A stretch of DNA of 64,000 nucleotides, taken from positions 29,325-93,324 of the forward strand of contig JBBPIM010000004.1 in assembly GCA_038040325.1 (NCBI GenBank). The letters are read 5' to 3'. The notes under the pieces are model-generated. The model was not told the DNA's origin. It made no database searches and saw only the letters and a program-made list of their open reading frames with translations. The stretch's first letter is position 1, and the number at the start of each line of letters is the position of its first letter. Of this stretch, positions 25,339 through 62,767 are shown piece after piece. The position numbers were made by a program, and so were the translations under genes. Origin of the DNA: Candidatus Mayfieldus profundus. GTDB taxonomy: Bacteria; Actinomycetota; Thermoleophilia; Solirubrobacterales; 70-9.

Positions 25339-27027
25339 ATGGAAGCTCAGTCCATTTCAAAAACCGACCAGTCTCTTGACCTCCCCGCTTCCGGGGAGGC
25401 GGTTCCCGCAAACCCGGCGACGTTCGAGTCGGGGCCTCTTGCCGCAGACCTGCCTGAGTCCCCGCAGCGTCAACGCCGGGGACTTGCCTTGCCCAGCGTC
25501 GCCGTCCCTCGCTGGGTGGGCATCGCGGTCGATTACTTCGCTGCCTCGGCCGGGCTGCTCGCGATCACGCTTCTGGGCGGAGGCTCTCTTTCGCCCACGG
25601 CGCTTCTCGCGCCCATGCTGCTGGTCTATTTCAACTGGGCGATCGGCCTCTACGGGCCCTCCCTGGCGGGACGCCAGACGACCGGGCGCCCCCGCACCCC
25701 CCTCGCACTGCTGCTCACCACAGGCATTTTCGCGTGGTGCGCGGGGGTCATCGAAAGCTCGTCCATCGGTGGAGGCAGTCTCGGCGCGGTCGACCAGCTG
25801 GTCCTCTGGGGCGGGGTGTTTGCCTCCGGACTCGCGAACCGAAGCACCGCGGCCGGCGCGGTCAAGCGCGCTGATCCTGAGCGCTGGCTCGTGGTGGGTG
25901 GGATCGGCGGCATCGAGCGGCTCGAGTACGCCCTTCGCGGGGATCGGGACCAAAATCTGGCACGGATCGTCGCTGCGCAGCCGATTCCGTCGAATGGGAC
26001 CGTGCCGCTGGAGCGTCGTTCGGAGGCAATGGCCGCCGTCGAGAGCAGTGACGTGGATCGCGTGGTGCTCGCGCTCGGGGCCGTCGATTCCGGCACCGCA
26101 CTCGAGCTCGTTCACACCTTCAAGGCGCTCGGTGTTCCGGTCAGCCTGCTCGAGCCGCCGCCGGATCTGACCGAAGGCCTGCCGCTCGCGGAGAGGCGGG
26201 TCGGACAGCTGCCGGTTGTCGACGTCGGACAGCTCACCCGTAACGGGCACGCCTCGCAGAACGGACACGCCGCCACCAACGGAAATGCCGCCATGAACGG
26301 ACACGCCGCCACCAACGGACACACCGCCACCAACTGGCACGCCGCTCGAAACGGCTGGAGGCCGCGCGTGAGCGTGATCATCCCGGCGCTCAACGAGGAG
26401 GAGAACCTGCCCCATGTCCTCGAGCGGCTCCCGGCACGCCTGCACGAAGTGATCCTGGTCGACGGCAGCTCCAACGACCAGACGGTGGAGGTCGCGATCA
26501 GGGAGCGACCCGGGATCCGTGTCCTCGCCCAGTCCGGACGCGGCAAGGGCGACGCCCTGCAGACGGGCTTCGCCGCGGTGACCGGAGACGTCATCGTCAC
26601 CCTCGACGCCGACGGGTCTGCCGACCCGGCGGAGATCCCGCGCTTCGTCGAAACCCTCATGGCCGGGTCGGACTTCGCCAAGGGGTCCCGTTTCGTGGGT
26701 GACGGGGGAAGCGACGACATCACAGCGATCCGCCAGCTGGGCAACTGGGCGCTGAACACGACCGCAAACGCGCTCTACGGAACCCGCCACAGCGACCTCT
26801 GCTACGGCTACAACGCCTTCTGGACCCGTTGCCTTCCCTACATCTCGCTCGACGTCACGGGATTCGAGGTCGAGACTCTGATGACCCTGCGATCCGCAAA
26901 GGCGGGACTGAAGGTCAGCGAGGTGCCGAGCTACGAGGCCAAGCGCCTGCACGGAAAGAGCAACCTGAAGATCTGGCGGGACGGCTTCCGGGTGCTGAGG
27001 ACGATCATCAGGGAGCGCCAAGCGTAG
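25339..27027 (+). CDS. membrane protein: phosphoglycosyltransferase-type N-terminal TM + Rossmann-like module fused to DPM1-like GT2 domain
   Basis: 562 aa. About 4 hydrophobic helices are followed by 'RWLVVGGIGGIERLEYAL....DRVVLAL....LGVPVSLL', which resembles a WbaP/EpsB N-terminal region. An (NGHAAT)n linker comes next, then the GT2 core 'VSVIIPALNEEENL..VILVDGSSNDQT', 'TLDADGS' and 'EVPSYEAKRLHGKSNL'. The start is uncertain because there is no good SD. Confidence 0.7.
   Translation: MEAQSISKTDQSLDLPASGEAVPANPATFESGPLAADLPESPQRQRRGLALPSVAVPRWVGIAVDYFAASAGLLAITLLGGGSLSPTALLAPMLLVYFNWAIGLYGPSLAGRQTTGRPRTPLALLLTTGIFAWCAGVIESSSIGGGSLGAVDQLVLWGGVFASGLANRSTAAGAVKRADPERWLVVGGIGGIERLEYALRGDRDQNLARIVAAQPIPSNGTVPLERRSEAMAAVESSDVDRVVLALGAVDSGTALELVHTFKALGVPVSLLEPPPDLTEGLPLAERRVGQLPVVDVGQLTRNGHASQNGHAATNGNAAMNGHAATNGHTATNWHAARNGWRPRVSVIIPALNEEENLPHVLERLPARLHEVILVDGSSNDQTVEVAIRERPGIRVLAQSGRGKGDALQTGFAAVTGDVIVTLDADGSADPAEIPRFVETLMAGSDFAKGSRFVGDGGSDDITAIRQLGNWALNTTANALYGTRHSDLCYGYNAFWTRCLPYISLDVTGFEVETLMTLRSAKAGLKVSEVPSYEAKRLHGKSNLKIWRDGFRVLRTIIRERQA
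26242..26349 (+). repeat. six tandem 18-bp units encoding (N-G-H-A-A/S-T/Q)n interdomain linker
   Basis: The units aacgggcacgcctcgcag / aacggacacgccgccacc / aacggaaatgccgccatg / aacggacacgccgccacc / aacggacacaccgccacc / aactggcacgccgctcga are read directly from the sequence. Confidence 0.9.
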
Positions 27028-27817
27028 CTTCGCCTCGCAGCTTTCGGATCACGCAGACGACCCAGCCAGCCCCTTCGTCTTTGTCGTTGGACTCCAACCT
27101 GCAGTGGGTCTCAGCCCGGCCGGCAAGCGTCTCGGTCAAGTCGGACTCGTATCCCGGTCGCCAGATCACGAACCGGCCGTCTCGCTCGTCGAAGTTCCAC
27201 TGGTGGAGCTGGACGTAGGCCTGGTTGACCGCCTCGTTGCGCACATGCCGCAGGACCACATACCCCTCCGGACGCACGACGCCGAGCATGTTTTCGATGA
27301 TCAGCACCGGATCAACGGCGTGATCGAGCGCATTTCGCGAGTAGGCGATGTCGAATCGGTCGGGCCCGAAGCGCTGCAACAGCCGCTCTCCCTCCGCCCG
27401 CTCTGTGCGGGCCGGGGGGTCGATGCCTCGTTTAGCCAGCAGGCGTCCGTACTGATCGGCCAGAGGATCCACCGGGGTCAGAGACAGCGTCTTGCCAGGG
27501 AACCGGTAGCCCACCCCTGACACCGGGCCCGCGCCGACGTCAAGGATCGAGACCTGCTTCTGCGCAAGGCTCGCCAGGACCTCGCAAAGGGCCGGGTCGG
27601 CAACCTCCGCGTTCGGGTCGAGGCGATAGCTGTAGTCGTTCGCCCACTTGCCACCCTGGTTCGACAGCCAATCCCGCCAGTAATCGACCTCTTCTCGTAG
27701 CGCACGCCTGCGGGCGCGGACTGGGTCGCTACGGGTCCGCCATCCCTGCTCACCCCGACGACCGAAGCCGCGAGCAAGGCGGCCGGCGATCGCACGAAAA
27801 TCCCGCATTCGACCCAC
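27008..27817 (-). CDS. class I SAM-dependent methyltransferase
   Basis: 269 aa with motif I 'ILDVGAGPVSGVG' and later 'FDIAYSRNALDH' and 'RPEGYVVLRH'. Its 3' end overlaps the upstream convergent gene by 20 bp. Confidence 0.7.
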   Translation of the reverse strand: MGRMRDFRAIAGRLARGFGRRGEQGWRTRSDPVRARRRALREEVDYWRDWLSNQGGKWANDYSYRLDPNAEVADPALCEVLASLAQKQVSILDVGAGPVSGVGYRFPGKTLSLTPVDPLADQYGRLLAKRGIDPPARTERAEGERLLQRFGPDRFDIAYSRNALDHAVDPVLIIENMLGVVRPEGYVVLRHVRNEAVNQAYVQLHQWNFDERDGRFVIWRPGYESDLTETLAGRAETHCRLESNDKDEGAGWVVCVIRKLRGEATLGAP

Positions 27818-27838
27818 CCTAGCCTTAACATCGCCGGC

Positions 27839-29716
27839 GTGACCGCGCTGATCGCCAGGGAGGTGGCCAGGGATACGGTCGCCTTGGAGGCAGACCGGTC
27901 GGCGCCCGGCTCGCGGATCGGCCAGGTTCCGCTGATCGCGTTTCTCGCGGGGATCGGCCTGCTGGTCTGCTCGGTTGCCGACGCCTTGGCGCGCGCCACG
28001 CTGGCGCCGTCACCGCTGATCTATTGGGCCGGCATTCTCATCATCGGCCTGCCGATCTTCTATCGGCTCCTCTCCAGGGAGGCATCCCCCGGTGAACGGC
28101 TCGCGCTCGTCTGCGTTCTCGCTATGGCCCTTTATGGGGTCAAGCTGGCGCAGGAGCCATTCCTGTTCACGTTCCCGGACGAGTTCACCCACAGCTACAA
28201 CGCCAACCAGATCGAGCTGCATCACCATCTCTTCCATCCCAATTCGCTGCTGGTGGTGAGCCCGTACTACCCAGGGCTCGAAGGAGCAACCTCGGCGTTG
28301 ATGATGTTGACAGGGATGTCCAGCTACGTTGCGGGAATCATCGTCGTCGGGGCCGCTCGGCTGACCCTCGTGATCGCGCTGTTCCTGCTGTTTGGGCGTA
28401 TCAGCGGCTCCGCCCGTATTGCGGGGATCGGCGTCGCGATATATGCCGGAAACCCCAATTTCATGTTCTTCGGCGCCCAGTACTCCTACGGTTCCCTTGC
28501 CCTTCCGCTGCTCGTGGTCCTCCTGATGGCCCTCGCCGAACGCGATGCCTTCCCTCGATCGTGGTCCTGGGCCTGGTCGGTGCCGATCGTGCTCGGAACG
28601 GCGGCCCTCGTGGTGACCCACCACCTGACCTCCTACGCACTAACAGGGATCTTGCTCACCCTGGCGCTCGCGCACGTGCTTGTCCACCGACGGGTGGAAT
28701 GGCGAAATCCATTGCCGTTCGCAATCCTGGCCGGAGGGTTGAGCGCGATCTGGCTCCTCGTGGTTGCCAGCGCAACCCTGAGCTACCTCGAGGCGCCGTT
28801 GGCAAGGGCGATCAGGGAGACCTGGAACACGATCACAGGTGATACAGGCACACGCGATTTGTTCCAGTCCGGGGGCTCCAGCTCCGGTACGAGGGTCCCG
28901 GTTTCCACCCCCGTGGTGGCCCAAATCTTCGCGTTTGCCTCCGTGGTCATCCTGCTCATCGGCCTTCCCCTCGGCCTCTGGCAGGTGTGGCGACGTCATC
29001 GAACCAAGGCTTTTGCCCTGATGTTCTCGCTGGCGGCCATCGGGTTCTTCGGCGTGCTCGGACTCCGGTTCGCCCCGGCTGCGTGGGAGGCCGGCAACCG
29101 CGCGGCCGAATACCTGTTCCTCGGGCTCGCGTTCGTAGTCGCGCTGGCGATCGTATCCGTGTATTCACTCCTGGAGGGCCGGAGGGTCCGGCTCGGCCGC
29201 GGGCTGCTCACGGCGTGCCTAGGGGTCTTGCTGACGGGGGGAGCGATCAGCGGCTGGCCCTGGGATCAGCATCTCGCTCAGCCGATCACCGCCACCTCAG
29301 ATGGGCGCCGCTTCGAGTCCGAGCCGCTCGGAATGGCTCGTTGGGCGCGAGGCCACTTCCCCGGTCAGAAGTTCGCGGCTACCGAGATCGACGCTCGTCT
29401 TCTCATCGATCCCGGGGGAGCCAGGGTGTATTCCGGGTATACCCTCGAAGTCCAGGACATCCTGGACGCGACCAAGCTCGAGCCGTGGCACACGGCGGAC
29501 CTACGGCGCAACAAGACCCGCTACGTGGTCGCCGATCGCCGGCGGACAAGCAGGGATCTCATCAGGGGTTACTTCCTCTCGCTGCTGCCGCCGGCAGGAA
29601 AGCGGTACCGCCCGCTGCCGAGGGGAACGACGGCCAAGTTCGAGCAGATCCCCACTGCGGCCCGCATGTTCGACAGCGGCAACATCGTCGTCTTCGACAT
29701 CGAGGCCGGCCGATGA
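27839..29716 (+). CDS. large polytopic membrane protein, GT-C-like / candidate glycan polymerase or transferase (uncharacterised)
   Basis: 625 aa with a GTG start and at least 10 hydrophobic helices. An early loop reads 'FTFPDEFTHSYNANQI' (acidic DE motif), and a soluble C-terminal domain of about 170 aa follows. The family is not identified. Confidence 0.55.
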   Translation: MTALIAREVARDTVALEADRSAPGSRIGQVPLIAFLAGIGLLVCSVADALARATLAPSPLIYWAGILIIGLPIFYRLLSREASPGERLALVCVLAMALYGVKLAQEPFLFTFPDEFTHSYNANQIELHHHLFHPNSLLVVSPYYPGLEGATSALMMLTGMSSYVAGIIVVGAARLTLVIALFLLFGRISGSARIAGIGVAIYAGNPNFMFFGAQYSYGSLALPLLVVLLMALAERDAFPRSWSWAWSVPIVLGTAALVVTHHLTSYALTGILLTLALAHVLVHRRVEWRNPLPFAILAGGLSAIWLLVVASATLSYLEAPLARAIRETWNTITGDTGTRDLFQSGGSSSGTRVPVSTPVVAQIFAFASVVILLIGLPLGLWQVWRRHRTKAFALMFSLAAIGFFGVLGLRFAPAAWEAGNRAAEYLFLGLAFVVALAIVSVYSLLEGRRVRLGRGLLTACLGVLLTGGAISGWPWDQHLAQPITATSDGRRFESEPLGMARWARGHFPGQKFAATEIDARLLIDPGGARVYSGYTLEVQDILDATKLEPWHTADLRRNKTRYVVADRRRTSRDLIRGYFLSLLPPAGKRYRPLPRGTTAKFEQIPTAARMFDSGNIVVFDIEAGR

Positions 29717-30498
29717 GGGGTCACCAGGATCTCGCTGTGGCGGCGGCGGCGGCCGTCACCTGCGCGCTGTTTGCGCTCTTGGTCCCGTTCGAGTTGGTCC
29801 GGTTGGCCGTCGCAGTGCCTCTGGCCCTTCTCTTGCCTGGGTATGCCATCTCCGCTGCCGCGTTCGGGCCACGGCCACCCGGGCCGGTGCGGCTGCTGGC
29901 GCTGAGCCTCGGTTTGAGCCTGATAACGCTTGTGCTCGGCACCCTGGTGTTGAACTACGCGCCCGGGGGTTTGCGCGCCGGAAGCTGGGCAGCGCTGCTC
30001 GTCCTGGTCGTGCTCGTCGGCTGCGTGGTGGCGGCGGTGCGGCGGGGAGAGGCCCCGAGTGGTCGATTCCGTTGGCCGCGGCCCCGGCTAACTCGCTCGG
30101 AGGGGGGGCTGCTGCTGGGAGCAGCACTCGCCTTCGCCGCGGCCGGGGTGATCTCCTCGACGGCGCTGCCAGCAAAGAATGCGGAGGGGTACACACGACT
30201 CTGGATGTTGCCGGCCAGCGGTGCCGAGGCGTCAGGCGTACGCGTCGGTGTCATCAACCAGGAGCACGACACCGTGGCTTATAGGCTCGAGGTGCAGCTG
30301 GGCCACCGCCGCAATCCCGTTGTGAGGCGTTTTTTCCTACAGCCCGGCCAGAAGCGAAGGGTGCAGATACCGGTCGGGGGCCTACCCACGCCGGCCAAGC
30401 CCGTCCCCGTCACGGCGTTGCTCTTCCGGCGCGCCGATCCCGATACGGCATACCGGCGGGTGACGGGCTGGACTCGGGGAGCCCGCGCGACCCCATGA
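29713..30498 (+). CDS. DUF1616-like membrane protein
   Basis: From the ATG at 29713 (ATGA overlap with the upstream stop), 261 aa. The N-terminal helices carry 'PLALLLPGYAISAAAF' and 'ALSLGLSLITLVLGTLVLNY'. The C-terminal beta-rich 'YTRLWMLP...VRVGVINQEHDTVAYRLEVQL' matches my recollection of the mainly archaeal DUF1616 family. Confidence 0.5.
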   Translation: MRGHQDLAVAAAAAVTCALFALLVPFELVRLAVAVPLALLLPGYAISAAAFGPRPPGPVRLLALSLGLSLITLVLGTLVLNYAPGGLRAGSWAALLVLVVLVGCVVAAVRRGEAPSGRFRWPRPRLTRSEGGLLLGAALAFAAAGVISSTALPAKNAEGYTRLWMLPASGAEASGVRVGVINQEHDTVAYRLEVQLGHRRNPVVRRFFLQPGQKRRVQIPVGGLPTPAKPVPVTALLFRRADPDTAYRRVTGWTRGARATP

Positions 30499-31601
30499 GC
30501 CCGCGGCGCGGTTCCGACCTTGCGGTTGACATCGTGATCAGCAACTACAACTACGGGTCCTTTTTGATCGATGCCGTCGAGAGCGCCTGCCGGCAGACCT
30601 ACCCCAACGTCAACGTGGTCGTCGTCGACGACGGCTCGACCGACGATTCGCGCGAAAGGTTGCGCGACTACGAGGACCGGGTTGAGATCGTGTCGAAGGA
30701 GAACGGAGGGCAAGCCTCCGCGCTCAACGCCGGGCTAGCGCGATGTCACGGCGATCTGGTGATGTTCCTCGATGCCGACGACGTGCTGCGTCCGTGGGCC
30801 GCGGGACGTGTCGCCGAAGAGTTCTCGACCGACCCCAACCTGGCGAGGGTTCAGTTCCGAATGGCCTTCGTCGACGCGACGGGGCATCCAACGGGGCAGA
30901 CCGAACCGAGCGAGCATCAACGCGCGCCGACCGGCGATCTGCGCCATGCCGAGTTGGCCTTTCCCTTCGACCTCCCCTGGATCGCGGGGGGAGGCACCGC
31001 GTTTCGCACCGAGCCTCTGCGAACGATCTTCCCAATCCCCGAGCGAGACTATCCCCGCTGCGGAGCCGATTGGTACGTTGTTCACTTGATGGCACTGCTC
31101 GGCGAGGCGGGATATGTCGACGAGGTGTGCGCCGATTACCGCCTTCACGGGCGCAACGGGTACGCGCGGCAGGACCAACAGCTCGACCTCCAGCAGGTCC
31201 GCCACAGCATCGCCTACTCAGCCCCTACGAAGGCAGCGCTGGCACGGCTTGCGGATCAGGTCGGTCTCGAGCGTCCCGAGCGAATACTCTCGATGTCGGA
31301 CCTCGCAAATCGCCTAATTTCGCTCAGGCTCGAGCCTCAAACCCATCCGATCCGCGACGACAACGTCTTCGGCCTGCTCGCCGATTCGGTGCGCGCTGCC
31401 CGGCGCCGTTTCGACGTCTCCTGGCCAATGAAGGTGGTGTTCGTGGGCTGGTTCGTGGCAGTGGCGGTCTCCCCGCGCCCGCTCGTCCGCCGGCTCGGCG
31501 AGCTGCTCTGGTTCCCCACCGCGCGGCGCGGATGGATCAACCGGCTGCTGGGGCGGCTTCGCCGCGAGAGCGTCGGCAGAGCCCCGGCAAGGAGTGCTTG
31601 A
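30495..31601 (+). CDS. glycosyltransferase family 2
   Basis: 368 aa with 'DIVISNYNYGSFLIDAVESACRQTYPNVNVVVVDDGSTDDS', 'GGQASALNAG' and 'FLDADD'. ATGA overlap with the upstream gene. Confidence 0.8.
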   Translation: MSPRRGSDLAVDIVISNYNYGSFLIDAVESACRQTYPNVNVVVVDDGSTDDSRERLRDYEDRVEIVSKENGGQASALNAGLARCHGDLVMFLDADDVLRPWAAGRVAEEFSTDPNLARVQFRMAFVDATGHPTGQTEPSEHQRAPTGDLRHAELAFPFDLPWIAGGGTAFRTEPLRTIFPIPERDYPRCGADWYVVHLMALLGEAGYVDEVCADYRLHGRNGYARQDQQLDLQQVRHSIAYSAPTKAALARLADQVGLERPERILSMSDLANRLISLRLEPQTHPIRDDNVFGLLADSVRAARRRFDVSWPMKVVFVGWFVAVAVSPRPLVRRLGELLWFPTARRGWINRLLGRLRRESVGRAPARSA

Positions 31602-32896
31602 CCTTGCGCCTACTGCTTGCCACCGATCACTATCCCCCCTTCATCGGCGGCGGACACAGGCAGTCGCTGCTGGTCGCGAGGGGCATGGCGAGCCGCGGTC
31701 ATGAAGTGGCTGTGGTCGCGCCTTGGAGCCGCGGCCTTCCGATGGTGGAGGTCGAAGACCGGGTCACAGTGCACCGCGTGCGCCAGATTCGGACCCTTCC
31801 AGGGCTCGCCCGCGATCGCCGCCAGCACTACCCGCCACCATTCCCCGACCCTGTCACGATCAGGAGCCTGCGCCGCGTGATCGCAAAGGTGCAGCCCGAC
31901 ATAATCGACAGCCACGGCTGGATCGGCTACTCGGTGGCGGCAGCGCTTGTCGGCAAGCGAATTCCGCTCGTGCTCACCGCGCGGGACTACGGCTACTTCT
32001 GCGCGACGCGGTCGCTGCTGCATAAGGGAAGCCTCTGCAGCGGTCCGGCACCAGTCAAGTGTCTTAATTGCGCCGGCGGCTGGTACGGCCGGCCGAAGGG
32101 CTGGCTCGCGGCGCTGGGGGTATGGCTCGGCCGGCCTCTGCTGGCCCGCAAGATGGCCGGACTTCATGGCGTCAGCTCCTTCGTGACCGACGTCAACGGC
32201 CGCCACCTGAAGAGCGCGACCCCCCGGGGGCACGACTTCATCGAGCTCGCGCGTCCGGACATCCTCGCCGAAAGCGCCTCCGAGTCCCAGAACAACCTTG
32301 CCCCTTCGGGCATCAGCGACGGCGACTCGGACGTTTCCTCCTATCTGGAGCGCTTGCCCGAAGAGCCATTCGTCATGTTTGTCGGCGCCTTCCGCAAGGT
32401 CAAGGGGGTGGAAACCCTGTTCGACGCGTACCGCCTCCTCCCCTCACCCCCGCCGCTCGTGATGATGGGGACGGTTGAGAGCGATACGCCAAGTGAGTTT
32501 CCGCCGCGGACGACGGTGTTGACCGACGTTCCCAATGCTGCTGTCATTGCCGCTTGGGGTCGTGCGATGTTCGGCGTCATGCCCTCGCTCTGGCCGGAGC
32601 CGCGCGGAGGCACCGTGGCGGAGGCGATGCTCTGCGGGAAGCCGGTCATCGCAACGCTAAGCGGCGGATCTGTCGACATGGTGGACGAGTCCACGGGCAT
32701 TCTCGTGCCGCCGGGGGACGCCGCTGCGCTCGCAAAGGCGATGTTGGAGCTGATCGGAGACCCCGCGCGACGGGAAGCGTGCGGCCGAGCTGCCGCGGAG
32801 CGTGCCAGGGAATGGACATCTCGCTCCCTGCTGCCCACCTACGAGCAGGCGTACCGGGATGTGATCTCAGCCGCGGAGGGCGAATCGGCTGGTTGA
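31598..32896 (+). CDS. glycosyltransferase family 4 (GT-B)
   Basis: 'LRLLLATDHYPPFIGGGHRQSLLVARGMASRGHEVAVV' is a GT4 N-terminus, and 'E..GGTVAEAMLCGKPVIAT..GG..DMV' is the EX7E region. There is no ATG, so I place the start at TTG 31598 or 31604. Confidence 0.72.
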   Translation: MTLRLLLATDHYPPFIGGGHRQSLLVARGMASRGHEVAVVAPWSRGLPMVEVEDRVTVHRVRQIRTLPGLARDRRQHYPPPFPDPVTIRSLRRVIAKVQPDIIDSHGWIGYSVAAALVGKRIPLVLTARDYGYFCATRSLLHKGSLCSGPAPVKCLNCAGGWYGRPKGWLAALGVWLGRPLLARKMAGLHGVSSFVTDVNGRHLKSATPRGHDFIELARPDILAESASESQNNLAPSGISDGDSDVSSYLERLPEEPFVMFVGAFRKVKGVETLFDAYRLLPSPPPLVMMGTVESDTPSEFPPRTTVLTDVPNAAVIAAWGRAMFGVMPSLWPEPRGGTVAEAMLCGKPVIATLSGGSVDMVDESTGILVPPGDAAALAKAMLELIGDPARREACGRAAAERAREWTSRSLLPTYEQAYRDVISAAEGESAG

Positions 32897-33220
32897 GAGC
32901 AAGCGACCCCGGCTGGGTCAGCGGGGGACGAGCACAAACTGCCAGGCTCATGGCAGGCCGCCCATCGCGGCGTCGCGACGGAGGTGCCGCGGGGTGACCC
33001 TGAAGAAATCATGCTCCCAGTCGACCGGGGCAATTTCCAGTACGCCTTCTGAGCGCGTAGGGGCAGCCACCCCATAAAGGGGAAGCCGGCTGGGACCACA
33101 GGAAGCCCGAGCCGCGTGGCTCGCTCATCGCAGGACCGCAGCTTGGGTGGTGTGTTCCGAGATGTCATCGCGGACGACGATACCTCTAGTCGACCACCAT
33201 GCCAGGCAGAATTGGTCCGC

Positions 33221-46302: not shown

Positions 46303-46307
46303 GGGGT

Positions 46308-54891: not shown

Positions 54892-55845
54892 ATGTCACGC
54901 CCGTTCTTCACCGTCCTCGTCACAACCTACGACCGCGCCCAGATCGTGCGGCGCTGTGTTGACAGCTGCCTCGGCCAGACCTTCTCCGACTACGAGGTCG
55001 TCGTAGTCGATGACGGTTCGACCGACGACACCTTCTCGATCCTGGAGCGCATCGATGATCCTCGCCTGCGTGTCGTCGCCCATGAGTCAAACCGCGGAAT
55101 CGACCCCTCGCGGCACACCGGTGTCGCCAACTCGCGCGGGGAGTGGATAGTCCACATCGACAGCGACGACGAGTTGTTCCCCTACACGCTCGAGCGCCTG
55201 CGCGAGTTCATCGATGCTCTCCCGGATGGTGTGCGGGTCCTGCGTACCCGGCTGCTCTGGGACGACGGTCGCATCACCCCTGCTTTCGTCCCAACGGGAC
55301 CGATCGATTACGAAGGTCGACTCCGAGCCTGGGAGGCGGACCGGTCGGATGCCGGGAACTGCTGGCATCGTTCCGTATTCGACCTCAATCCGTATTTCAG
55401 GGATCGCCGCGGCGCGATGGAAGCGCTGCGGGAGTTGAACATGTCGAGAGTCGAGACCACCATGTACGTCCCGGACGTTCTCGCCAAGGTGCACACCGAC
55501 GCTCCAAACAGCTGGGCGCGCGGCGCCGACGCGTCCGAGGTCATCCCGCGGCTGTTGCGCGAGGCGCCCGACATGCTGTGGATGATGGAGACGACGATCG
55601 ACGAGCACGGTGCCGCGCTGGCTCAACATGCCCCCCGGACATATCGGCTCTTCCTGCGTGGGGCGTCAACGCAGGCGTTTCTGCTCGGCGACCGCAGGAA
55701 GGGATTCCGCTACGGACTTGCGGCCTTGCGGCTCGGCAGGCTCGATGCATTGGCCTGGGGAACCCTTGCGCTGGGGTTGCTTGGCCCGTGGGCGGTGGTT
55801 CGGGGCACGGTGGCGCACCGCCGGCTGAATCGCTTGAGGCCCTAG
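54892..55845 (+). CDS. glycosyltransferase family 2 (module A)
   Basis: 317 aa with 'FFTVLVTTYDRAQIVRRCVDSCLGQTFSDYEVVVVDDGSTDDT' and 'HIDSDDELFP'. Close paralog of 58039..59001. Confidence 0.8.
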   Translation: MSRPFFTVLVTTYDRAQIVRRCVDSCLGQTFSDYEVVVVDDGSTDDTFSILERIDDPRLRVVAHESNRGIDPSRHTGVANSRGEWIVHIDSDDELFPYTLERLREFIDALPDGVRVLRTRLLWDDGRITPAFVPTGPIDYEGRLRAWEADRSDAGNCWHRSVFDLNPYFRDRRGAMEALRELNMSRVETTMYVPDVLAKVHTDAPNSWARGADASEVIPRLLREAPDMLWMMETTIDEHGAALAQHAPRTYRLFLRGASTQAFLLGDRRKGFRYGLAALRLGRLDALAWGTLALGLLGPWAVVRGTVAHRRLNRLRP

Positions 55846-57161
55846 CCGAGGCTAGGTTCCCGGCGGCCGGCGTTGCCAGCCCAGCGCTGCGGAAGCAGCA
55901 GCGGGCGCAGGATGGTGCCAAGAAGAGCCAGGGCAATGACGGTCTGGCTCACGGTCCAGGCGACGCCAACACCGGTGATGCCCATTGGCGGCAGCAGGAT
56001 CGCGCTCAAGCCGATCACGAGCACAGCGAGACTGCCCTCTACAACGGCCATGGCGCGGCCACGGTGCTGGATCCGAGCAACGCTGACACCCAACGCGACG
56101 ATCACGTTCGGAATCATGCCCGCCGCGAGGAGCCGCAGGAGCGACGCCCCGGCGTCGGCGTAGGCTTGGCCGAAGGCAATCAGCATCCAGGGCGCCGCGA
56201 TTGCTGTCAGCGCCGCGAGCGGGACGACAAGCCGCATTGAGGTAGCGAGTGCGCGACGTGTGAGCTGCCGCAGCTGCGCCATGTCGACCGCCGCTTCGAC
56301 GGTGAGCGAGATCATGATGTTCACCGCAACGAGTTGCAGCGCCAGACAGATCGTCCAGGGAATGAAGAAATATGCCGTTTCAACTGCGCTGCTGAGGTTC
56401 GCGACGAGGATCGGGAGATAGAGGGTCGCTGCGAGACCGAACAACCATCCCGCGAGATTGCCCGTCGCCATCCCGATCAGCTTGCGGCGATCGAGCGAGT
56501 GATGGGATGGGTGCGCTGGGATCAGGCGCCGGAAGACGAGCAGGTTGATCAGGAGAATCGCGGCGGGCAATGGCGCATTCCACGCTATGAACAGACCCGA
56601 CCCCGGGACCCCCACGAGGGCAAGCAGGACCGCCAGCTTGGCGAGGGAATACAGCGAGTTCTCGAGTGGAATCCACCTCGCGGACCGCAGGCCGGTGAGG
56701 ACACCGTCCTGCAGAGTAAAGACGGTTGTCGCCGCCGTGGCCAGCGTGAAGCCGATCAACCAGCCATCGCTGTCCAGGAAGCCGAGCTTTGAAGACCAAG
56801 CGGAGCTCGTGAGGGCGGCTGCGGCGCCCAAGACGAGAGACAGAACCACAGTGACCAGATAGCTGCGCACAACGAACGTGCGGGTCGACGCGCCGGCCAC
56901 AGGCAGGTAGCGGACCAGGACGGTGCTGAGGCCGAGTGTGCACACACCCGAGACGAGGGTCAGAGCCGAAATCGCGGCCGAGTTGAGACCCACCACGCGC
57001 GCAGGATACGTCTGCGCTGCGAGTACCCAGAAGGCGATCCCGAGCAAGCCCGTGACGCCGGTTCCCAGGATCAGGAAATAGCCGGTCTGATACAGCGGGT
57101 CGCTGAGATGCTCGCGTAACCGATCTCGGCCGGATTGGGCTGGTGGGGGCGCCGTGGCCAT
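55842..57161 (-). CDS. polysaccharide flippase, Wzx/MOP-superfamily-like (module A)
   Basis: From the ATG at 57161 (439 aa, a start that aligns with the paralog's N-terminus). About 12-14 helices with a typical oligosaccharide-flippase layout. A 4-nt convergent overlap with the GT2 stop. Confidence 0.65.
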   Translation of the reverse strand: MATAPPPAQSGRDRLREHLSDPLYQTGYFLILGTGVTGLLGIAFWVLAAQTYPARVVGLNSAAISALTLVSGVCTLGLSTVLVRYLPVAGASTRTFVVRSYLVTVVLSLVLGAAAALTSSAWSSKLGFLDSDGWLIGFTLATAATTVFTLQDGVLTGLRSARWIPLENSLYSLAKLAVLLALVGVPGSGLFIAWNAPLPAAILLINLLVFRRLIPAHPSHHSLDRRKLIGMATGNLAGWLFGLAATLYLPILVANLSSAVETAYFFIPWTICLALQLVAVNIMISLTVEAAVDMAQLRQLTRRALATSMRLVVPLAALTAIAAPWMLIAFGQAYADAGASLLRLLAAGMIPNVIVALGVSVARIQHRGRAMAVVEGSLAVLVIGLSAILLPPMGITGVGVAWTVSQTVIALALLGTILRPLLLPQRWAGNAGRREPSLG

Positions 57162-57238
57162 TCCGCTATCGCCCGCGCTGTGGAAGATCAGGCCCCACCG
57201 GCTCGACTTCGACCCGCGCCAAGGGTTTCCTCTGCCAC

Positions 57239-57895
57239 TCAGCCCGGGGCTGTTTTCCTCCACAGACGCCTGCGTCGCATGTACACCAGCCGGCCCCAGA
57301 GTTCCCTGCGACCGGCCTTGGAATAGAGCTCGTCCAGGGGCGCCTTGCCAACAAGAGGATGCAGGTGCTCGACAATCGAATCAGATGCGTGAGCGAAAGC
57401 GTTGCGGGAGATCGCTGTCTGCACGAACTCGTCATCGACGAACTCGTGCATATAGCGCTCGTGTAGCAGCCGCGTTGGATCGTCGATGGTGCCCAGCTCG
57501 GCATAGTCCCTCGTAACCAGCGAGTGGGTGGAATGCTGGCCGGCCATCACACGATCTGAACACAGATCGTTGGTACCGACCACGCCGATTCCCTCGGTCA
57601 GCTGTGCCTTCGCTGCCTCAAGCCAGCCCGGATGAAAGCGAAGGTCATCAGCCGCCAAGAACAACAGGGGCTCGCTCGTCTCCTGAACCGCGTGGTTGAT
57701 CTTCTTCGCGTAGTTGCCCCGTACGATCAGCATCTCCGCGCCCTCGGCCTCGATCGCGCGTTGCTCAGCCTCATCGCCAGGGTCGCAGACGAACAGGACG
57801 CGGGCCCCTGGGGTGGTTCGCCGGATCGACGTGAGCAGGGGCCGCACGTTGTGTGGGCGGCCCAACACGGGCACGATGATCACCAGCTCAGCCAC
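57239..57895 (-). CDS. small GT-A-like glycosyltransferase-like protein
   Basis: 218 aa with a GTG start. 'LVIIVPVLGRPHNVRPLLTSIRRTT.GARVLFVCDPGD' and 'FLAADDLRFHPGWL' resemble a GT-A Rossmann core with a DD(x) motif. The family is not identified. Confidence 0.45.
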   Translation of the reverse strand: MAELVIIVPVLGRPHNVRPLLTSIRRTTPGARVLFVCDPGDEAEQRAIEAEGAEMLIVRGNYAKKINHAVQETSEPLLFLAADDLRFHPGWLEAAKAQLTEGIGVVGTNDLCSDRVMAGQHSTHSLVTRDYAELGTIDDPTRLLHERYMHEFVDDEFVQTAISRNAFAHASDSIVEHLHPLVGKAPLDELYSKAGRRELWGRLVYMRRRRLWRKTAPG

Positions 57896-58038: not shown

Positions 58039-59001
58039 ATGTCACAGCCTTTCTTCAGCGTTGTCGTCACGACCTATGACCGCGCCCGGATCGTGCGGCG
58101 CTGCGTCGACAGCTGCCTGGCGCAGTCGTTCTCCGATTTCGAGGTGGTCGTAGTCGACGACGCCTCGACCGACGACACCGTCCAGGTTCTGAACGGCATC
58201 GATGATCCGCGCCTTGGCGTGGTCGTTCACGAATCCAACCGCGGCATCAATCCCTCGCGCCACACCGGCGTCAACAACTCGCGGGGGGAGTGGATAGTCG
58301 TCGTCGACAGCGACTGGGAGCTGTTCCCCTATACGCTCGAGCGCCTGCGTACGATCATCCAAGACCTCCCGGAGGGCGTGCGGATCGTGCGAGGCCGACT
58401 GCTCTGGGACGACGGTCGAGTCTCGCCGGCGTCCGTACCCACGGGACCGATCGGCTACGAAGGCCACATCCGGCGCATGGAGCAGGACTGGTCGGACGAC
58501 GTCTCGTGCATGCATCGCTCGGTGTTCGAGCGCACCCCATACTTCAGCGATCGCCGTGGCGTGATCGAGGCGCTGTACGAGCTGAACCTGGCAAGGGTGG
58601 AGACGGGCATCTTCGTCGATGACGTTCTGGGCAAGGAGCACACCGACGCTCCGAACAGCTGGTGGCGCAGCGTCGACGCGTCCGAGGTCATACCGCGGCT
58701 CCTTCGCGAGGCGCCGGACATGCTTTGGATGGTGGAGACCACCCTTGACGAGCATGGAGCTGCGCTCGTGCAGCATGCCCCCAACTCGTACCGGGAGTTC
58801 CTGCGCATGGCGTCGACGCAGGCGTTCCTGGTCGGCGACAGGCGGAAGGGAAGACGCTACGCCTTGGCGGCGTTGCGGCGCAAGAAGCTCGATCCCCTGG
58901 CCTGGGTGACCCTGGCGCTCGGGTTGCTGGGTCCGCATGCAGTGGCGCGCGGATCACTGGCACAGCGCCGGTTGAATCGCTGGCGTAGCCGCGTCGCTTA
59001 G
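58039..59001 (+). CDS. glycosyltransferase family 2 (module B)
   Basis: 320 aa with 'FFSVVVTTYDRARIVRRCVDSCLAQSFSDFEVVVVDDASTDDT' and 'VVDSDWELFP'. Collinear paralog of 54892..55845. Confidence 0.8.
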   Translation: MSQPFFSVVVTTYDRARIVRRCVDSCLAQSFSDFEVVVVDDASTDDTVQVLNGIDDPRLGVVVHESNRGINPSRHTGVNNSRGEWIVVVDSDWELFPYTLERLRTIIQDLPEGVRIVRGRLLWDDGRVSPASVPTGPIGYEGHIRRMEQDWSDDVSCMHRSVFERTPYFSDRRGVIEALYELNLARVETGIFVDDVLGKEHTDAPNSWWRSVDASEVIPRLLREAPDMLWMVETTLDEHGAALVQHAPNSYREFLRMASTQAFLVGDRRKGRRYALAALRRKKLDPLAWVTLALGLLGPHAVARGSLAQRRLNRWRSRVA

Positions 59002-60338
59002 CGCAGTCTCGGCTCACCGAGTCCGACTTCACCAGCCCAGCGCCGGGGGAGCAGCAGCGGCCGCAGGATGCCTGCGAACAGAACAAGGGCGATCGCAGTC
59101 TGGGTAGCAAGCCATGCAACCCCGACGGCCTCGATACCCATACCGGGGATCAGTATCGCGCTCAAGCCGATTACCAGCACTGCCTGCACGGCCTGCACAG
59201 CCAGCACCACCCCGCCGCGGTGCTCGATGCGGGCCACGCTAATCCCCAGCACGACGATCACGCTCGGGATCTGGCCGGCCGCGAGTATCCGCAGCAGCGG
59301 CGCACCGGCGTCCGAGTAGGACTCGCCGAATGCGAGCAGCAGCCAGGGCGCCGCGATTGCGGTGACGGCCGCGACAGGGCATACGAGCAGCATCGTCTGC
59401 CTGAAAGCACGTCGGGCAAGCTGCCGAAGCCGCGGCATGTCGATCGCCGCCTCCACAGTAAGCGAAGACATCATGCTCAGCGCGACCAGCTCCAGCGCCA
59501 CGGAAAGCGTCCACGGCACGAAAAAATAGGCCGCTTCCTCTGCGCTGACTAGATTTGCGACGAGGATCGGCACGTAGAAAGTCGCCGCGAGGTCGAAGAG
59601 CAGCCCAGCGTAGTTCCCCCTCGCCATCCCCAAGAACTGGCGGCGATCGAGAGATCCCTCGGTATGACGGGCCGGTATCAACCGCCGGAAGACCAACAGG
59701 CTGACCAACACGATGGCGGCGGGTAGAGGAGCGCTCCAGGCGACGAACAGGCCGGATTGCGGGATCGCCCCGGCGAGCGCCAGCAGAAGCACGAGCTTGG
59801 CGACCGAGTAGAGCGAGTTCTCGAGTGGGATCCACTTCGCCGCCTGCAACCCGGTGAGGACGCTGTCCTGAAGGGTGAAGATGGTCATCGTCGCGGTGGC
59901 GAGCGTGAAGCCGATCAGCCAGCCCGGCTCGGTGAGGAAATCGAGCTTCGGCGACCACAGCTGGCTGGTCAGCGCGGCCGCCGCGCCCAACGCGAGCGAG
60001 AGCGCCACGGTCGCCGCGTAGCTGCCGACCACCAGCCTGCGGGTCGAACGGCCGGCCACGGGCAGGTACCGCACCAGGACGGCGTTGAGTCCGAGCGTGC
60101 AGGCGCCAGAGACGAGCGCCATCGCCGAGATCACCGCCGCGTTGAGACCCACCTCCCGCGCCGGGTACGCCTGAGCCGCGACCCCCCAGAAGACCACACC
60201 GAGCAGGCCGGTGATACCGGTTCCGAGAATCAGGTAGTAGCCCGTCTGGTACAGCGGGTCGCTGAGATGCGCCGCCAGCCGGCTTCGGGTGGATGGGGTC
60301 GATTTCTGGGAAGAGGCGGATGGCGGGGATTTGGCCAT
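58998..60338 (-). CDS. polysaccharide flippase, Wzx/MOP-superfamily-like (module B)
   Basis: 446 aa. 'HLSDPLYQTGYYLILGTGITGLLG...' is collinear with the module A flippase. The 4-nt convergent overlap with its GT2 is the same as in module A. Confidence 0.65.
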   Translation of the reverse strand: MAKSPPSASSQKSTPSTRSRLAAHLSDPLYQTGYYLILGTGITGLLGVVFWGVAAQAYPAREVGLNAAVISAMALVSGACTLGLNAVLVRYLPVAGRSTRRLVVGSYAATVALSLALGAAAALTSQLWSPKLDFLTEPGWLIGFTLATATMTIFTLQDSVLTGLQAAKWIPLENSLYSVAKLVLLLALAGAIPQSGLFVAWSAPLPAAIVLVSLLVFRRLIPARHTEGSLDRRQFLGMARGNYAGLLFDLAATFYVPILVANLVSAEEAAYFFVPWTLSVALELVALSMMSSLTVEAAIDMPRLRQLARRAFRQTMLLVCPVAAVTAIAAPWLLLAFGESYSDAGAPLLRILAAGQIPSVIVVLGISVARIEHRGGVVLAVQAVQAVLVIGLSAILIPGMGIEAVGVAWLATQTAIALVLFAGILRPLLLPRRWAGEVGLGEPRLR

Positions 60339-60500
60339 CGACTGCCGCCATGTTGATCCGGCTTGCGGCGGACACCGTACTCTTATTCGTCCTCCGCGCC
60401 AGGCAGAATCTTGAGAATCGAGTAACGAATGCCGAACGAGACCGGTAGGAAGCTCGAATCGATGTGTTCATCGTCTAGCGGCAAGAAGGGGGGCCCACGC

Positions 60501-61583
60501 ATGACATCCCGGATCCGACATTCGACTGCGGCGCGAGCGGCCGTCCTGGCTGTATTCGCGCTCGCATCGGCCTGCCTTGCCATGCCCTCGACGGCCCTCG
60601 CGGCAAAGCCCCGCAAGCTGTACTGGGGTGCGCACATCGGCGATCAGCTGACGGGCACGGCGGCGCCATATGACATGGGGGCGGTCTCGAAGTTCGCGGC
60701 GATCGCGGGCAAAGGGCTCTCCATGGTGGGGGTTAGTGCCGCCTTCGCGGATTGCTCATCGTCGCCGTGCACCTTCTACGGCTTCCCGACGACATTGATG
60801 GAGGACGTGCGCCAGTACGGGGCGATTCCGTTCTTCACATGGGCCTCGCAGGCGACCCCCCCGGGCGGCCTAAGCCAGCCGAATTTCCAGCTCTCCGACG
60901 TGATCAGCGGCAAACACGACGCCTATATCCGCAGCTTTGCTGCGGGCGCGAAGAGCTGGGGGCACCCGTTCTTTCTGCGCTTCAACCCGGAGATGAACGG
61001 GAACTGGTTCTCCTGGTCGGAAAGACGGAACGGCAACCGGCGCGGCGAGTCGGTCGCCGCCTGGCGTCACGTGCACGACATCTTCACCTCCGTCGGCGCG
61101 ACCAACGCCACCTGGGTCTGGTGCCCCAACGTCAACATCAGCGACGACAGCGCGCTCCAGCACAACCTCCGCGCGCTCTACCCCGGCCGCAAGTACGTCG
61201 ACTGGACATGCCTGGATGGCTTCAACTGGGGCCTCCGGGCCGGCTCCCCCGGTTGGCTGAGCTTCAAGCAGATCTTCCGCAGGACCTACCGTCGGGTCAT
61301 CAAGATCGCTCCGACCAAGCCGATGGTCCTCGGCGAGGTCGCCTCCAGCGATAGCGGCGGCTCCAAGGCCGCCTGGATCCGCAACATGCTCCGCACGATT
61401 CCCAACAAGTACCGCAAGATCCGCGGCATAATTTGGAACGACGTGCACGACCGCGACACGAACTGGCCGATCGAGACCTCGCGCTCCGCCACCAGGGCCT
61501 TCCGCCGCGGCATCGGCCGGCGCGTTTACCAACCCAGCAGGTTCGCCAATCTCGCCGCCTCCCCGATCCGACCGCCGCATTGA
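60501..61583 (+). CDS. secreted GH26-like glycoside hydrolase, paralog 2
   Basis: From the ATG at 60501, with a GGGGGG SD about 8 nt upstream. Signal peptide 'AAVLAVFALASACLAMPSTALA', then 'FFLRFNPEMNGNWFSWSE', 'WVWCPN', 'YPGRKYVDWTCLDGFNWG' and 'VLGEVAS'. Confidence 0.7.
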   Translation: MTSRIRHSTAARAAVLAVFALASACLAMPSTALAAKPRKLYWGAHIGDQLTGTAAPYDMGAVSKFAAIAGKGLSMVGVSAAFADCSSSPCTFYGFPTTLMEDVRQYGAIPFFTWASQATPPGGLSQPNFQLSDVISGKHDAYIRSFAAGAKSWGHPFFLRFNPEMNGNWFSWSERRNGNRRGESVAAWRHVHDIFTSVGATNATWVWCPNVNISDDSALQHNLRALYPGRKYVDWTCLDGFNWGLRAGSPGWLSFKQIFRRTYRRVIKIAPTKPMVLGEVASSDSGGSKAAWIRNMLRTIPNKYRKIRGIIWNDVHDRDTNWPIETSRSATRAFRRGIGRRVYQPSRFANLAASPIRPPH

Positions 61584-61672
61584 TCCCGGCCTGGCCATAG
61601 AATGCGAGCTCGAGCTACCGGCAACGGCTCTGAGGGGGTATCGGTGGAGAACACAGGCGAAGGGCTAAACGC

Positions 61673-62767
61673 ATGACATCCTCACTCCGACGGTCGACCG
61701 CGGCCAGGGCAGCGGCCATCCTGGGCGTTCTGGCGCTGGCAATGACGTGCCTCGCGCTCGTCTCGGATGACTCCGCGGCCAAGAAGCGCAAGCCGCCGCC
61801 GCTGTACTGGGGCGCCTGGATCGGCTGGCAGCTGACCGGCACCGAAGCGCCCTACGACATGAACGCCGTCTCCAAGTTCCAGTCACTGGTGGGCAAGGGA
61901 CTCTCCCTGGTCGAGTGGTCCCAGGCATTTTCGGACTGCCGATCCTCGCCCTGCCAATTCTTCGATTTCCCGGCCGCCGACCTGCAGAACGTGCGCCAGT
62001 ACGGGGCGATCCCGGTCCTCAGCTGGGCCTCGTCGTCAATCCCGAACTACGTCAACCAGCCGGACTTCCAGCTTTCCGACGTGATCGCCGGCCGGTATGA
62101 CGGCCACATCCGCAGCTGGGCAAGCGCGGCCAGGGCGTGGGGGCACCCCTTTTTCCTGCGCTTCAACTGGGAGATGAACGGTGACTGGTTCCCCTGGGGA
62201 GAGGCCACGAACGGCAACCAGCCCGGCCAGTCCGTCGCCGCCTGGCGCCACGTGCACGACATCTTCACCTCCGTTGGCGCGACCAACGCGACCTGGGTGT
62301 GGTGCCCGCTTGCCGAGATAAAGAAGAACACGGTCCGGGGCCTACGCGCGGTCTACCCCGGCGACGGCTATGTGGACTGGACCTGCCTGGACGGCTACAA
62401 CTGGGGTACCACGCCGGAAAACCCGCATCCCTGGAGGAGCTTCAACAAGATCTTCAGAAAGGACTATCTCTCGATCACCACGAAGATCGCCCGCAAGAAG
62501 CCGATGATGCTCGGCGAGATCGGCTCCCACAGCGGCGGCGGCAACAAGACCGCCTGGATCCGGGCCATGTTCCGCAAAGTCCGCACCGACTACAGAAAGG
62601 TCCGCGCGCTGATCTGGTTCAACGCGTTCGATCGCACCATCAACTGGCCGGTCGAGACTTCCCCTTCGACCCTGGCAGCCTTCCGCAGGGGCGTCGGAAA
62701 GCCCAACTACAAGCCCAATATCTACGGCAATATCAGCGCCAGACCGATTCCCCGGCCTCGACGCTGA
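61673..62767 (+). CDS. secreted GH26-like glycoside hydrolase, paralog 3
   Basis: 364 aa with a signal peptide, then 'FFLRFNWEMNGDWFPWGE', 'WVWCP', 'YPGDGYVDWTCLDGYNWG' and 'MLGEIGS'. Confidence 0.7.
   Translation: MTSSLRRSTAARAAAILGVLALAMTCLALVSDDSAAKKRKPPPLYWGAWIGWQLTGTEAPYDMNAVSKFQSLVGKGLSLVEWSQAFSDCRSSPCQFFDFPAADLQNVRQYGAIPVLSWASSSIPNYVNQPDFQLSDVIAGRYDGHIRSWASAARAWGHPFFLRFNWEMNGDWFPWGEATNGNQPGQSVAAWRHVHDIFTSVGATNATWVWCPLAEIKKNTVRGLRAVYPGDGYVDWTCLDGYNWGTTPENPHPWRSFNKIFRKDYLSITTKIARKKPMMLGEIGSHSGGGNKTAWIRAMFRKVRTDYRKVRALIWFNAFDRTINWPVETSPSTLAAFRRGVGKPNYKPNIYGNISARPIPRPRR

Follow-up and report, generated by a model that had tools for sequence, protein, structure and literature searches.

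What kind of surface glycan is made by a locus in which an ATP-binding cassette (ABC) exporter stands together with two flippase-like proteins and a large set of glycosyltransferases? We addressed this question for the locus at positions 25339-62767 of a 64,000-nucleotide stretch of DNA (the window; contig JBBPIM010000004.1, positions 29,325 to 93,324) from Candidatus Mayfieldus profundus, an uncultured actinobacterium from soil that belongs to the Solirubrobacterales. Positions given here are those of the window unless stated otherwise, and genes and their proteins are named after their leftmost coordinate. The locus is probably this organism's form of a locus found throughout the order Solirubrobacterales for a modified cell-surface heteropolysaccharide that depends on an ABC transporter for export and is then decorated and trimmed outside the membrane.

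Gene calls were made with a codon-usage log-odds score over the 64-kb window, whose G+C content of about 69% crowds raw open reading frame lists with shadow frames, and were cross-checked with independent calls for a contig of a Logan assembly, which encodes an identical protein and covers window positions 29713-45768. By these calls, 30 consecutive genes fill 25339-62767, with 12 strand switches and many intergenic junctions of 5-44 bp, in agreement with the at least 12 direction flips and very short junctions reported in a preliminary description of this DNA. The Logan calls decided between alternative starts at 33116 or 33221 for a GT4 gene and at 43896 or 44139 for a GT2 gene, favouring 33221 and 44139. 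Pfam annotation placed family 2 glycosyltransferase (GT2) domains in 11 proteins (25339, 30495, 34446, 38844, 39713, 41364, 43077, 44139, 50096, 54892 and 58039) and GT4 domains in five (31604, 33221, 35443, 48898 and, in its C-terminal half, 50096). Together with one small GT-A-like protein, two CE4 deacetylase domains, a kinase-like protein, Wzm/Wzt and three GH26 hydrolases, these counts reproduced the earlier inventory, which had also listed four S-adenosylmethionine (SAM)-dependent methyltransferases; only three of those (27008, 38068 and 53810) have Pfam support. Four polytopic proteins had no Pfam match of their own (27839, 47218, 55842 and 58998). No protein scanned attained an NCBIfam equivalog cutoff, so that sugar specificities are not assignable. 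The genes on either side are not glycan genes (by Pfam, left of the locus lie a BTAD regulator, a trypsin-like protease, an InlB-repeat protein and RTX hydrolases, with YdjM and a ceramidase to its right), and the boundaries of the locus are therefore correct. Proteins identical to those of the window carry the NCBI locus tags AABM29_02185 to AABM29_02310.

The gene order was compared with that of relatives. When one genome of each GTDB species was searched with the kinase protein 36554, 10 loci emerged, all of them in Solirubrobacterales metagenome-assembled genomes (MAGs), and synteny was assessed by tBLASTn over the loci and by inspection of four further ones. Relatives share a head (a 25339-like GT2, a GT-C fold glycosyltransferase, a DUF1616 protein, a GT2 and a GT4) and a tail (Wzt/Wzm, CE4, GT2, a Wzx-like protein, GT4 and a GT2-GT4 fusion, followed by four to five tandem GH26 genes), in an order shared among species-level MAGs at 50-75% protein identity. 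The middle is variable: the kinase is missing in the relative L015 and the 38068 methyltransferase in L002-L004. In the middle of L014 (positions 18893-21740 of that locus) we found a DegT-type aminotransferase and a GMC oxidoreductase, and in that of L015 (17641-20093) an amine-oxidase-like flavoprotein and a GH5 cellulase-family gene, which points to a common scaffold that carries sugar chemistries of different kinds. Constant ends around a variable middle suggest serotype-like diversification. Peculiar to the locus in the window are the duplication of a GT2 and Wzx-like pair, a second GT-C-like protein (47218) and extra GT2s. All in all, this is a lineage-conserved, serotype-like glycan locus, as in O-antigen or capsule loci, and not a recent mosaic.

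At the head of the locus, gene 25339 (25339-27027, + strand; start at 25339 or 25516) encodes a membrane-anchored GT2 recognised by Pfam, in which N-terminal transmembrane (TM) segments and a Rossmann-like region are followed by an (NGHAAT)n linker and a DPM/AglJ-like GT2 domain (Pfam GT2 at residues 345-492). The linker is a repetitive low-complexity segment of NGHA(A/S)T type at residues ~315-350 (window ~26280-26400). The best NCBIfam matches of the protein are all polyprenyl-phosphate-utilising enzymes (AglJ at 143.8 bits, a Dol-P-hexose transferase and ArnC), all under the equivalog cutoffs, and at its N-terminus there is a weak resemblance to the N-terminal region of WbaP-type proteins; of the other GT2s scanned (NCBIfam, E <= 1e-5), only 43077 matched AglJ, with 26 bits. 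A 25339-like GT2 is kept upstream of the GT-C gene in L002, L014 and L015. These matches make 25339 a candidate polyprenyl-phosphate hexose synthase. The gene that follows on the opposite strand, 27008 (27008-27817, −), gave a weak SAM-methyltransferase match (Methyltransf_11, 24.8 bits; cutoff 21.2).

Gene 27839 (27839-29716, +) encodes a 625-residue protein that has about 11-13 TM helices and ends in an extracytoplasmic domain of ~140 residues. It had no Pfam match even at E <= 10, STT3 included, and a profile of its family run against PDB sequences found no oligosaccharyltransferase (OST) and nothing useful; the fold search alone was informative. The protein has ~800 database homologues, the named ones all annotated as 'hypothetical' and the taxonomically labelled ones from Solirubrobacterales MAGs, and a few of them match DUF6541. 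An AlphaFold2 model built from 38 sequences (pLDDT, the predicted local distance difference test score, 76.8; pTM, the predicted template-modelling score, 0.79) gave confident Foldseek matches only to GT-C_A enzymes, at probability 1.00 and with TM-scores of 0.45-0.55 throughout (E of 1e-6 for STT3, 7e-6 for AftA, 1e-4 for AglB, 6e-4 for AftD and PglB and 1e-3 for ArnT). By its predicted fold, 27839 is thus a DUF6541-related GT-C glycosyltransferase. The first extracytoplasmic loop carries an invariant D114-E115-x-x-H118-x-x-N121 signature, and directly after the last TM helix stands a G-W-P-W-D motif (residues 472-476) whose first W is kept in 38/38 sequences, P in 36/38, second W in 35/38 and D in 31/38. 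Within the C-terminal domain the invariant D566, Y578 and K600 form no DxxK arrangement, and inspection of the sequence by eye revealed no DK/MI-type motif. The next gene, for a DUF1616 protein (29713-30498, +; Pfam DUF1616 62 bits, cutoff 31.6) with five predicted TM segments and a C-terminal domain, overlaps its neighbours with both its start and its stop codon and always comes after the GT-C gene in relatives. DUF1616 appeared in the literature searched only as a Haloferax membrane glycoprotein, and a literature search for DUF6541 returned nothing relevant.

The remaining glycosyltransferases recognised by Pfam are distributed over the whole locus. GT2 30495 (30495-31601, +; 103.5 bits) is kept in all relatives. 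It is followed by GT4 31604 (31604-32896, +), which is 37% identical to GT4 48898 (48898-50133, −), itself kept in relatives, and then by GT4 33221 (33221-34453, +), the EpsD-like GT2 34446 (34446-35474, +; 196.9 bits to NCBIfam EPS_EpsD, under the cutoff) and GT4 35443 (35443-36576, +; 136.5 bits). Three further GT2s are 38844 (38844-39668, −; 52 bits), 43077 (43077-44036, −; 104.2 bits, start per the Logan call) and 44139 (44139-45035, +; 77.8 bits), and the small GT-A-like protein 57239 (57239-57895, −) matched GT2 below threshold (22.0 bits vs a cutoff of 23.3) and TIGR04440 with E 3e-5. The likeliest polymerase, a candidate bifunctional one, is 50096 (50096-52276, +), a GT2-GT4 fusion with Pfam GT2, Glyco_transf_4 and Glycos_transf_1 domains; its N-terminal GT2 half is AglG-like (227.6 bits, under the NCBIfam cutoff), and the fusion is kept beside the GH26 arrays in relatives.

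An ABC-transporter-dependent pathway is recognised by Wzm and Wzt, and its sub-class in which capped chains are recognised by a carbohydrate-binding domain at the C-terminus of Wzt; Wzm, Wzt and this domain were all found. Wzt (45046-46302, −) joins an ABC nucleotide-binding domain (ABC_tran, 81.9 bits) to a C-terminal carbohydrate-binding domain (Wzt_C, 37.4 bits; cutoff 30.4, Pfam) that is kept in 7 orthologues. Among PDB sequences it matched Wzt, TagH and RfbE (E from 1e-61 to 1e-40), the best match being full-length Aquifex Wzt (8dku, E 5e-61, query residues 48-371). Wzm (46308-47195, −) is an ABC-2 permease (ABC2_membrane, 58.1 bits). For both subunits the best NCBIfam matches were galactan exporter models, far under the equivalog cutoffs (181.7 vs 400 bits for Wzt; 57.5 vs 380 for Wzm). 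Gene 47218 (47218-48888, −) lies in the same run on the same strand, with a GT4 gene upstream and Wzm/Wzt downstream, and encodes a 556-residue protein with 12 predicted TM segments and an invariant D36-E37 after TM1. Its family has 1868 representatives; one of 32 homologues matches PMT_2 (E 9e-7) and one of 32 GT87, an hhalign comparison with the 27839 family was weak but aligned the DE motifs (E 1e-3, 22% probability), and the family profile found nothing useful among PDB sequences. On this evidence, weaker than that for 27839, 47218 is probably GT-C-like.

The two flippase candidates, 55842 (55842-57161, −) and 58998 (58998-60338, −), are paralogues with 69% identity. Homologues carry the JGI name 'O-antigen/teichoic acid export membrane protein', and five of 21 family members match Polysacc_synt (best E 7e-7) and one of 21 PelG; the window proteins themselves are without a match, as was the 55842 family profile against the PDB. 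Through these homologues both can be assigned as putative MOP/Wzx-like flippases, which bears out the two Wzx-like proteins of the preliminary description. Neither a GtrA- nor an SMR-type flippase was found among the window genes, where the candidates are these two proteins and DUF1616. Each flippase candidate stands back-to-back with a GT2, 54892 (54892-55845, +; Pfam 104.8 bits) or its paralogue 58039 (58039-59001, +; 97.6 bits), in an old segmental duplication (54892-57263 and 58039-60338) with 74% protein identity between the GT2s and 69% between the Wzx-like proteins. The relatives examined have one copy of the pair.

Protein 36554 (36554-38071, +; Pfam APH 47.6 bits) consists of a Rossmann-like alpha/beta domain (residues 1-180) and an APH-type kinase domain whose residues K233, E247, H368-R369-D370, N375 and D388 are intact and invariant in 40 homologues. 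Its AlphaFold2 model (pLDDT 88.5) matched APH(3'), YihE, homoserine kinase and choline kinase in Foldseek through the kinase domain. The N-terminal domain, the sole possible candidate for a fourth methyltransferase, matched no family and no methyltransferase model by Pfam or profile search. The start of the SAM-methyltransferase gene 38068 (38068-38835, +; Methyltransf_23, 73.8 bits) overlaps the kinase stop codon; the third methyltransferase gene, 53810 (53810-54868, +; Methyltransf_25, 54.2 bits), lies nearer the right end. A WbdD-like terminator was considered for the 36554/38068 pair and rejected: there was no PDB sequence match to WbdD and no WbdD among the 50 Foldseek matches listed, only APH-family kinases. 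In addition, the N-terminal domain of 36554 lacks a methyltransferase match, and the protein ends with the kinase domain, with no C-terminal extension. Since L015 lacks the kinase and yet keeps the Wzt carbohydrate-binding domain, the feature recognised by Wzt is probably independent of the kinase, which may instead act on internal residues of the glycan. We therefore retain WbdD only as a possible analogy for the kinase-methyltransferase pair.

Two genes encode fusions of GT2 and CE4 domains, 39713 (39713-41350, +; Pfam GT2 and Polysacc_deac_1) and 41364 (41364-43064, −; Pfam), which are 31% identical to each other. Their CE4 halves (Polysacc_deac_1, 68 and 82 bits) keep the Asp and His-x-x-x-His metal-binding motifs (TIDD and HTRTH in 39713, TFDD and HAMTH in 41364), and as neither fusion has an N-terminal hydrophobic segment both are predicted to act in the cytoplasm. 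The three GH26 proteins do carry N-terminal hydrophobic segments: 52343 (52343-53737, +; 39.1 bits), secreted or anchored, with an N-terminal Ig-like region, and the two secreted paralogues 60429 (60429-61583, +; 28.0 bits, cutoff 20.2) and 61673 (61673-62767, +; 39.1 bits). Their best PDB match is CtLic26A (2vi0, E 2.7e-41, ~280 aligned residues), mannanases reaching only 1e-6, and the catalytic Glu pair, E269 (in EMNG) and E383, is invariant in 11 paralogues and orthologues. Tandem arrays of three to five such Lic26A-like genes close the locus in every relative with the tail seen (L012, 1291-6560; L013, 1-6005), a copy number unusually high for a biosynthetic locus.

From these parts we infer a pathway of five steps, including their order, the sugar composition and the nature of donors and acceptor. 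On the cytoplasmic side of the membrane, soluble or peripheral GT2 and GT4 enzymes would build up the chain on a polyprenol carrier, with 50096 as the likeliest polymerase. The chain would then be tailored in the cytoplasm through de-N-acetylation of N-acetylhexosamine residues by the CE4 halves, methylation, for which up to three SAM-methyltransferases are available, and phosphorylation by the kinase of APH type. Wzm/Wzt would export the finished lipid-linked chain, recognised by the C-terminal carbohydrate-binding domain of Wzt. Outside, the extracytoplasmic GT-C enzymes (27839 and probably 47218) would add residues from polyprenyl-phosphate sugars, which the AglJ/DPM-like 25339 would make and the MOP/Wzx-like proteins, DUF1616 or both would carry across the membrane. 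Finally, the secreted GH26 enzymes would cut or remodel the polymer. The domain content thus supports the complex glycan predicted in the preliminary description, with methylation, phosphorylation and N-deacetylation as its modifications.

Several points weigh against this pathway. The scan of genes in the 64-kb window showed no priming enzyme (WecA/TagO type, or a phosphoglycosyltransferase (PGT) with a WbaP catalytic domain), no nucleotide-sugar gene and no LCP/WaaL-type ligase, so that initiation and final attachment are not explained by the locus; the genes for them may be located in another part of the genome. No WbdD likeness could be demonstrated for the kinase, and in the kinase-less L015 the C-terminal domain of Wzt is still well conserved. 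Weak homology underlies the assignments of 47218 and the Wzx-like proteins, and the latter, each paired with a GT2 paralogue, could form a separate pathway. In that case two or more glycans would be made by co-localised pathways, an ABC-dependent polymer by the core glycosyltransferases and Wzm/Wzt, and a Wzx-dependent lipid-linked oligosaccharide through the GT2 paired with each Wzx-like protein, passed on by a GT-C protein. The back-to-back arrangement of each Wzx-like gene with its own GT2 paralogue, the duplication of the pair as a unit and its retention in relatives favour such a division, as do the 12 strand flips, which imply many transcription units. Yet the Pfam scans detected no Wzy-type polymerase, no regulator of chain length and no domain of a priming PGT, and in every relative seen the pair lies between Wzm/Wzt and the GT4 and GT2-GT4 genes, a position that fits one integrated pathway better; moreover, MOP-family flippases for polyprenyl-phosphate-sugar donors are known in three-component systems (PMC11127046). 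On balance we judge two separate glycans to be rather unlikely. That the locus was recently assembled from unrelated, horizontally acquired sub-pathways, in line with the mosaic of stitched sub-pathways that had been proposed earlier, we hold to be highly improbable. The frequent strand flips, the varying middle and a G+C content of 0.64-0.66 at 52-62 kb vs 0.69-0.74 over 32-40 kb would accord with such an origin, but it is largely refuted by the synteny of head and tail across Solirubrobacterales MAGs. In addition, the duplicated genes are 55-74% identical and the duplications hence old, and a mobile-element or horizontally transferred island was rejected in the absence of any tRNA or Rfam feature in the window and of any integrase or transposase in the Pfam scans.

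A protein-glycosylation system of the archaeal Agl type would read the same genes in another way: an AglJ-like GT2 primes polyprenyl monophosphate, an AglG-like enzyme and other glycosyltransferases extend the glycan, and 27839, together with DUF1616, hands the glycan on en bloc, after its export, to proteins of the envelope. OSTs carry a WWDYG motif where the C-terminal domain begins, behind the last TM helix, and the conserved G-W-P-W-D of 27839 is placed in the same way and is similar, although not identical, to it. STT3 subunits are the top Foldseek matches of 27839, with AglB and PglB also among the matches; 25339 is AglJ-like (144 bits), as the GT2 part of the 50096 fusion is AglG-like (228 bits); DUF1616 is recorded in the literature searched only from Haloferax; and no PGT or LCP/WaaL ligase occurs within the locus. 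Nevertheless, AftA, AftD and ArnT fit the model nearly as well as the OSTs, at the same range of TM-scores, so that the fold does not discriminate, and neither Pfam STT3 nor the family profile recovered an OST relationship. The C-terminal domain is small, no DK/MI-type motif was seen among its invariant positions, and D476 is replaced in 7/38 homologues. All Agl matches fall far under the equivalog cutoffs, and a Wzt with a carbohydrate-binding domain indicates a long polymer. An Agl-like system is accordingly improbable in our judgement, and nothing gives preference to the protein-glycosylation alternative named in the preliminary description. We are equally doubtful about the related idea that the constant head is a bacterial counterpart of the archaeal and eukaryotic lipid-linked glycosylation core, made up of the AglJ-like polyprenyl-phosphate GT2, the STT3/AglB-like GT-C with its WPWD motif and DUF1616. 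The GT-C protein would then act as an oligo- or polysaccharyltransferase that moves the glycan exported by Wzm/Wzt en bloc onto envelope proteins or another wall acceptor. If it were true, 27839 would represent a new OST-like family in Actinomycetota (Thermoleophilia), which would account for the missing PGT and LCP/WaaL ligase.

Outside the locus, several features of the window deserve mention. The SARP-like BTAD regulator gene (23881-25077) is divergent from the first glycan gene; it was rejected as a member of the locus, as relatives have an HpcH/HpaI aldolase gene at that place. This regulator, with PAS, BTAD and TPR domains, occupies 19768-25077 together with a 907-residue protein with divergent InlB B-repeats and a 506-residue trypsin-like serine protease. 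Further left, at 13057-18626, two adjoining large proteins (1196 and 642 residues) combine alpha/beta-hydrolase or peptidase S15-like domains with RTX calcium-binding repeats; such RTX-repeat hydrolases are uncommon in Actinomycetota and have no relation to the glycan locus. A housekeeping cluster at 5748-11459 (ispF, 5748-6209; ispD, 9013-9654; disA, 10272-11459) is consistent with a chromosomal, non-mobile context, and a 400-residue frame at 2187-3389 (−) has a strong coding signal and no Pfam match. At the right edge, the N-terminal part of a neutral/alkaline ceramidase-like protein (63455-64000) is truncated where the window ends.

In soils, Solirubrobacterales are an abundant group of actinobacteria; our literature search for glycan loci or envelope glycans of Solirubrobacterales or Thermoleophilia returned nothing relevant. 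Together with the equivalog cutoffs that no protein reached, this upholds the earlier statement that the locus is not an already characterised polysaccharide locus. The GT-C and kinase families each have about 750-800 matches in protein databases, the named ones from Solirubrobacterales MAGs, so that the locus is probably the main determinant of surface chemistry in this lineage, with consequences for phage receptors, desiccation tolerance and soil aggregation. It gives a functional context to three uncharacterised families, namely the DUF6541-related GT-C, bacterial DUF1616 and the Rossmann-like-plus-APH kinase, and it is unusual in that three to five tandem GH26 enzymes with intact catalytic residues accompany a biosynthetic locus. 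The novelty lies at the level of variants: a DUF6541-related GT-C coupled to DUF1616, the Rossmann-like-plus-kinase protein, cytoplasmic GT2-CE4 fusions and the tandem GH26 arrays.

How does this locus compare with known systems? With the E. coli O9a/O8 and Aquifex aeolicus systems it shares Wzm, Wzt with a Wzt_C domain, and multi-domain glycosyltransferase fusions. In O9a, the chain is capped and recognised by the Wzt carbohydrate-binding module, and WbdD is ordered as an active methyltransferase domain, next the kinase domain and last a coiled coil at the C-terminus (PMC3482155). As in WbdD, kinase and methyltransferase functions stand side by side here, in adjacent genes, and an alpha/beta domain precedes the kinase domain (PMC3482155). 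The differences are that the host is presumed to be a monoderm and hence offers no lipopolysaccharide acceptor, that the APH-like kinase shows neither a WbdD-type extension nor sequence or listed fold matches to WbdD, that the carbohydrate-binding domain is kept in a kinase-less relative, and that GT-C, Wzx-like, CE4 and GH26 parts are added.

Three-component glycosylation (Gtr) also works on ABC-exported O antigens of Klebsiella and Citrobacter (PMC11127046), and the combination of ABC and flippase export, regarded in the preliminary description as unusual for an actinobacterium, follows this known post-export logic. Like GtrA/B/C, the Klebsiella/Citrobacter side-chain systems and GacI/J/K/L, the locus has a synthase-like GT2 (25339) 811 bp upstream of a GT-C gene (27839), with the antisense methyltransferase gene between them, a small polytopic protein directly after the GT-C and candidate MOP-family flippases. 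In place of a GtrA/SMR-type flippase, DUF1616 is the small membrane partner here; the GT-C is tied to the uncharacterised DUF6541 and matched no CAZy-defined family, and the N-terminal membrane/Rossmann module of the synthase is WbaP-like. The logic of ABC exporter, flippase and GT-C is likewise that of the mycobacterial arabinogalactan cluster and, in streptococci, of rhamnose polysaccharides and the Gac locus. The mycobacterial cluster, with GlfT1/2, Wzm/Wzt (Rv3781/Rv3783), AftA/B, EmbABC and Rv3789, resembles the present locus in being actinobacterial and in combining GT2 polymerases, Wzm/Wzt, several polyprenyl-phosphate-sugar GT-C enzymes and a flippase. Galactan exporter models are the best for Wzt and Wzm, and the fold of 27839 has both AftA and AftD among its leading matches. 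The galactan-exporter scores, however, lie far under the cutoffs, no UbiA/DprE-type donor pathway and no Glf occur here, and CE4, kinase and GH26 are not in the mycobacterial cluster.

The Haloferax volcanii N-glycosylation pathway comprises AglJ, AglG, AglP, AglR, AglS and AglB. AglJ-like and AglG-like GT2s, SAM-methyltransferases, Wzx-like flippases, GT-C enzymes and a DUF1616 protein of the kind recorded in Haloferax recall it, whereas the matches under the equivalog cutoffs, the absence of Pfam STT3, the presence of a Wzm/Wzt exporter and the lack of evidence for protein acceptors set the locus apart. The GH26 enzymes finally compare best, among solved structures, with the beta-1,3-1,4-glucanase Lic26A of Clostridium thermocellum, whose catalytic Glu pair they keep; here, in contrast, three to five tandem paralogues stand in a biosynthetic locus; they bear signal or anchor sequences but lack cellulosomal modules, and their substrate is presumably the endogenous polymer. 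These comparisons show known kinds of parts arranged on known organising principles, and they extend the ABC-dependent and three-component schemes, with new parts, to a new lineage rather than overturn current models.

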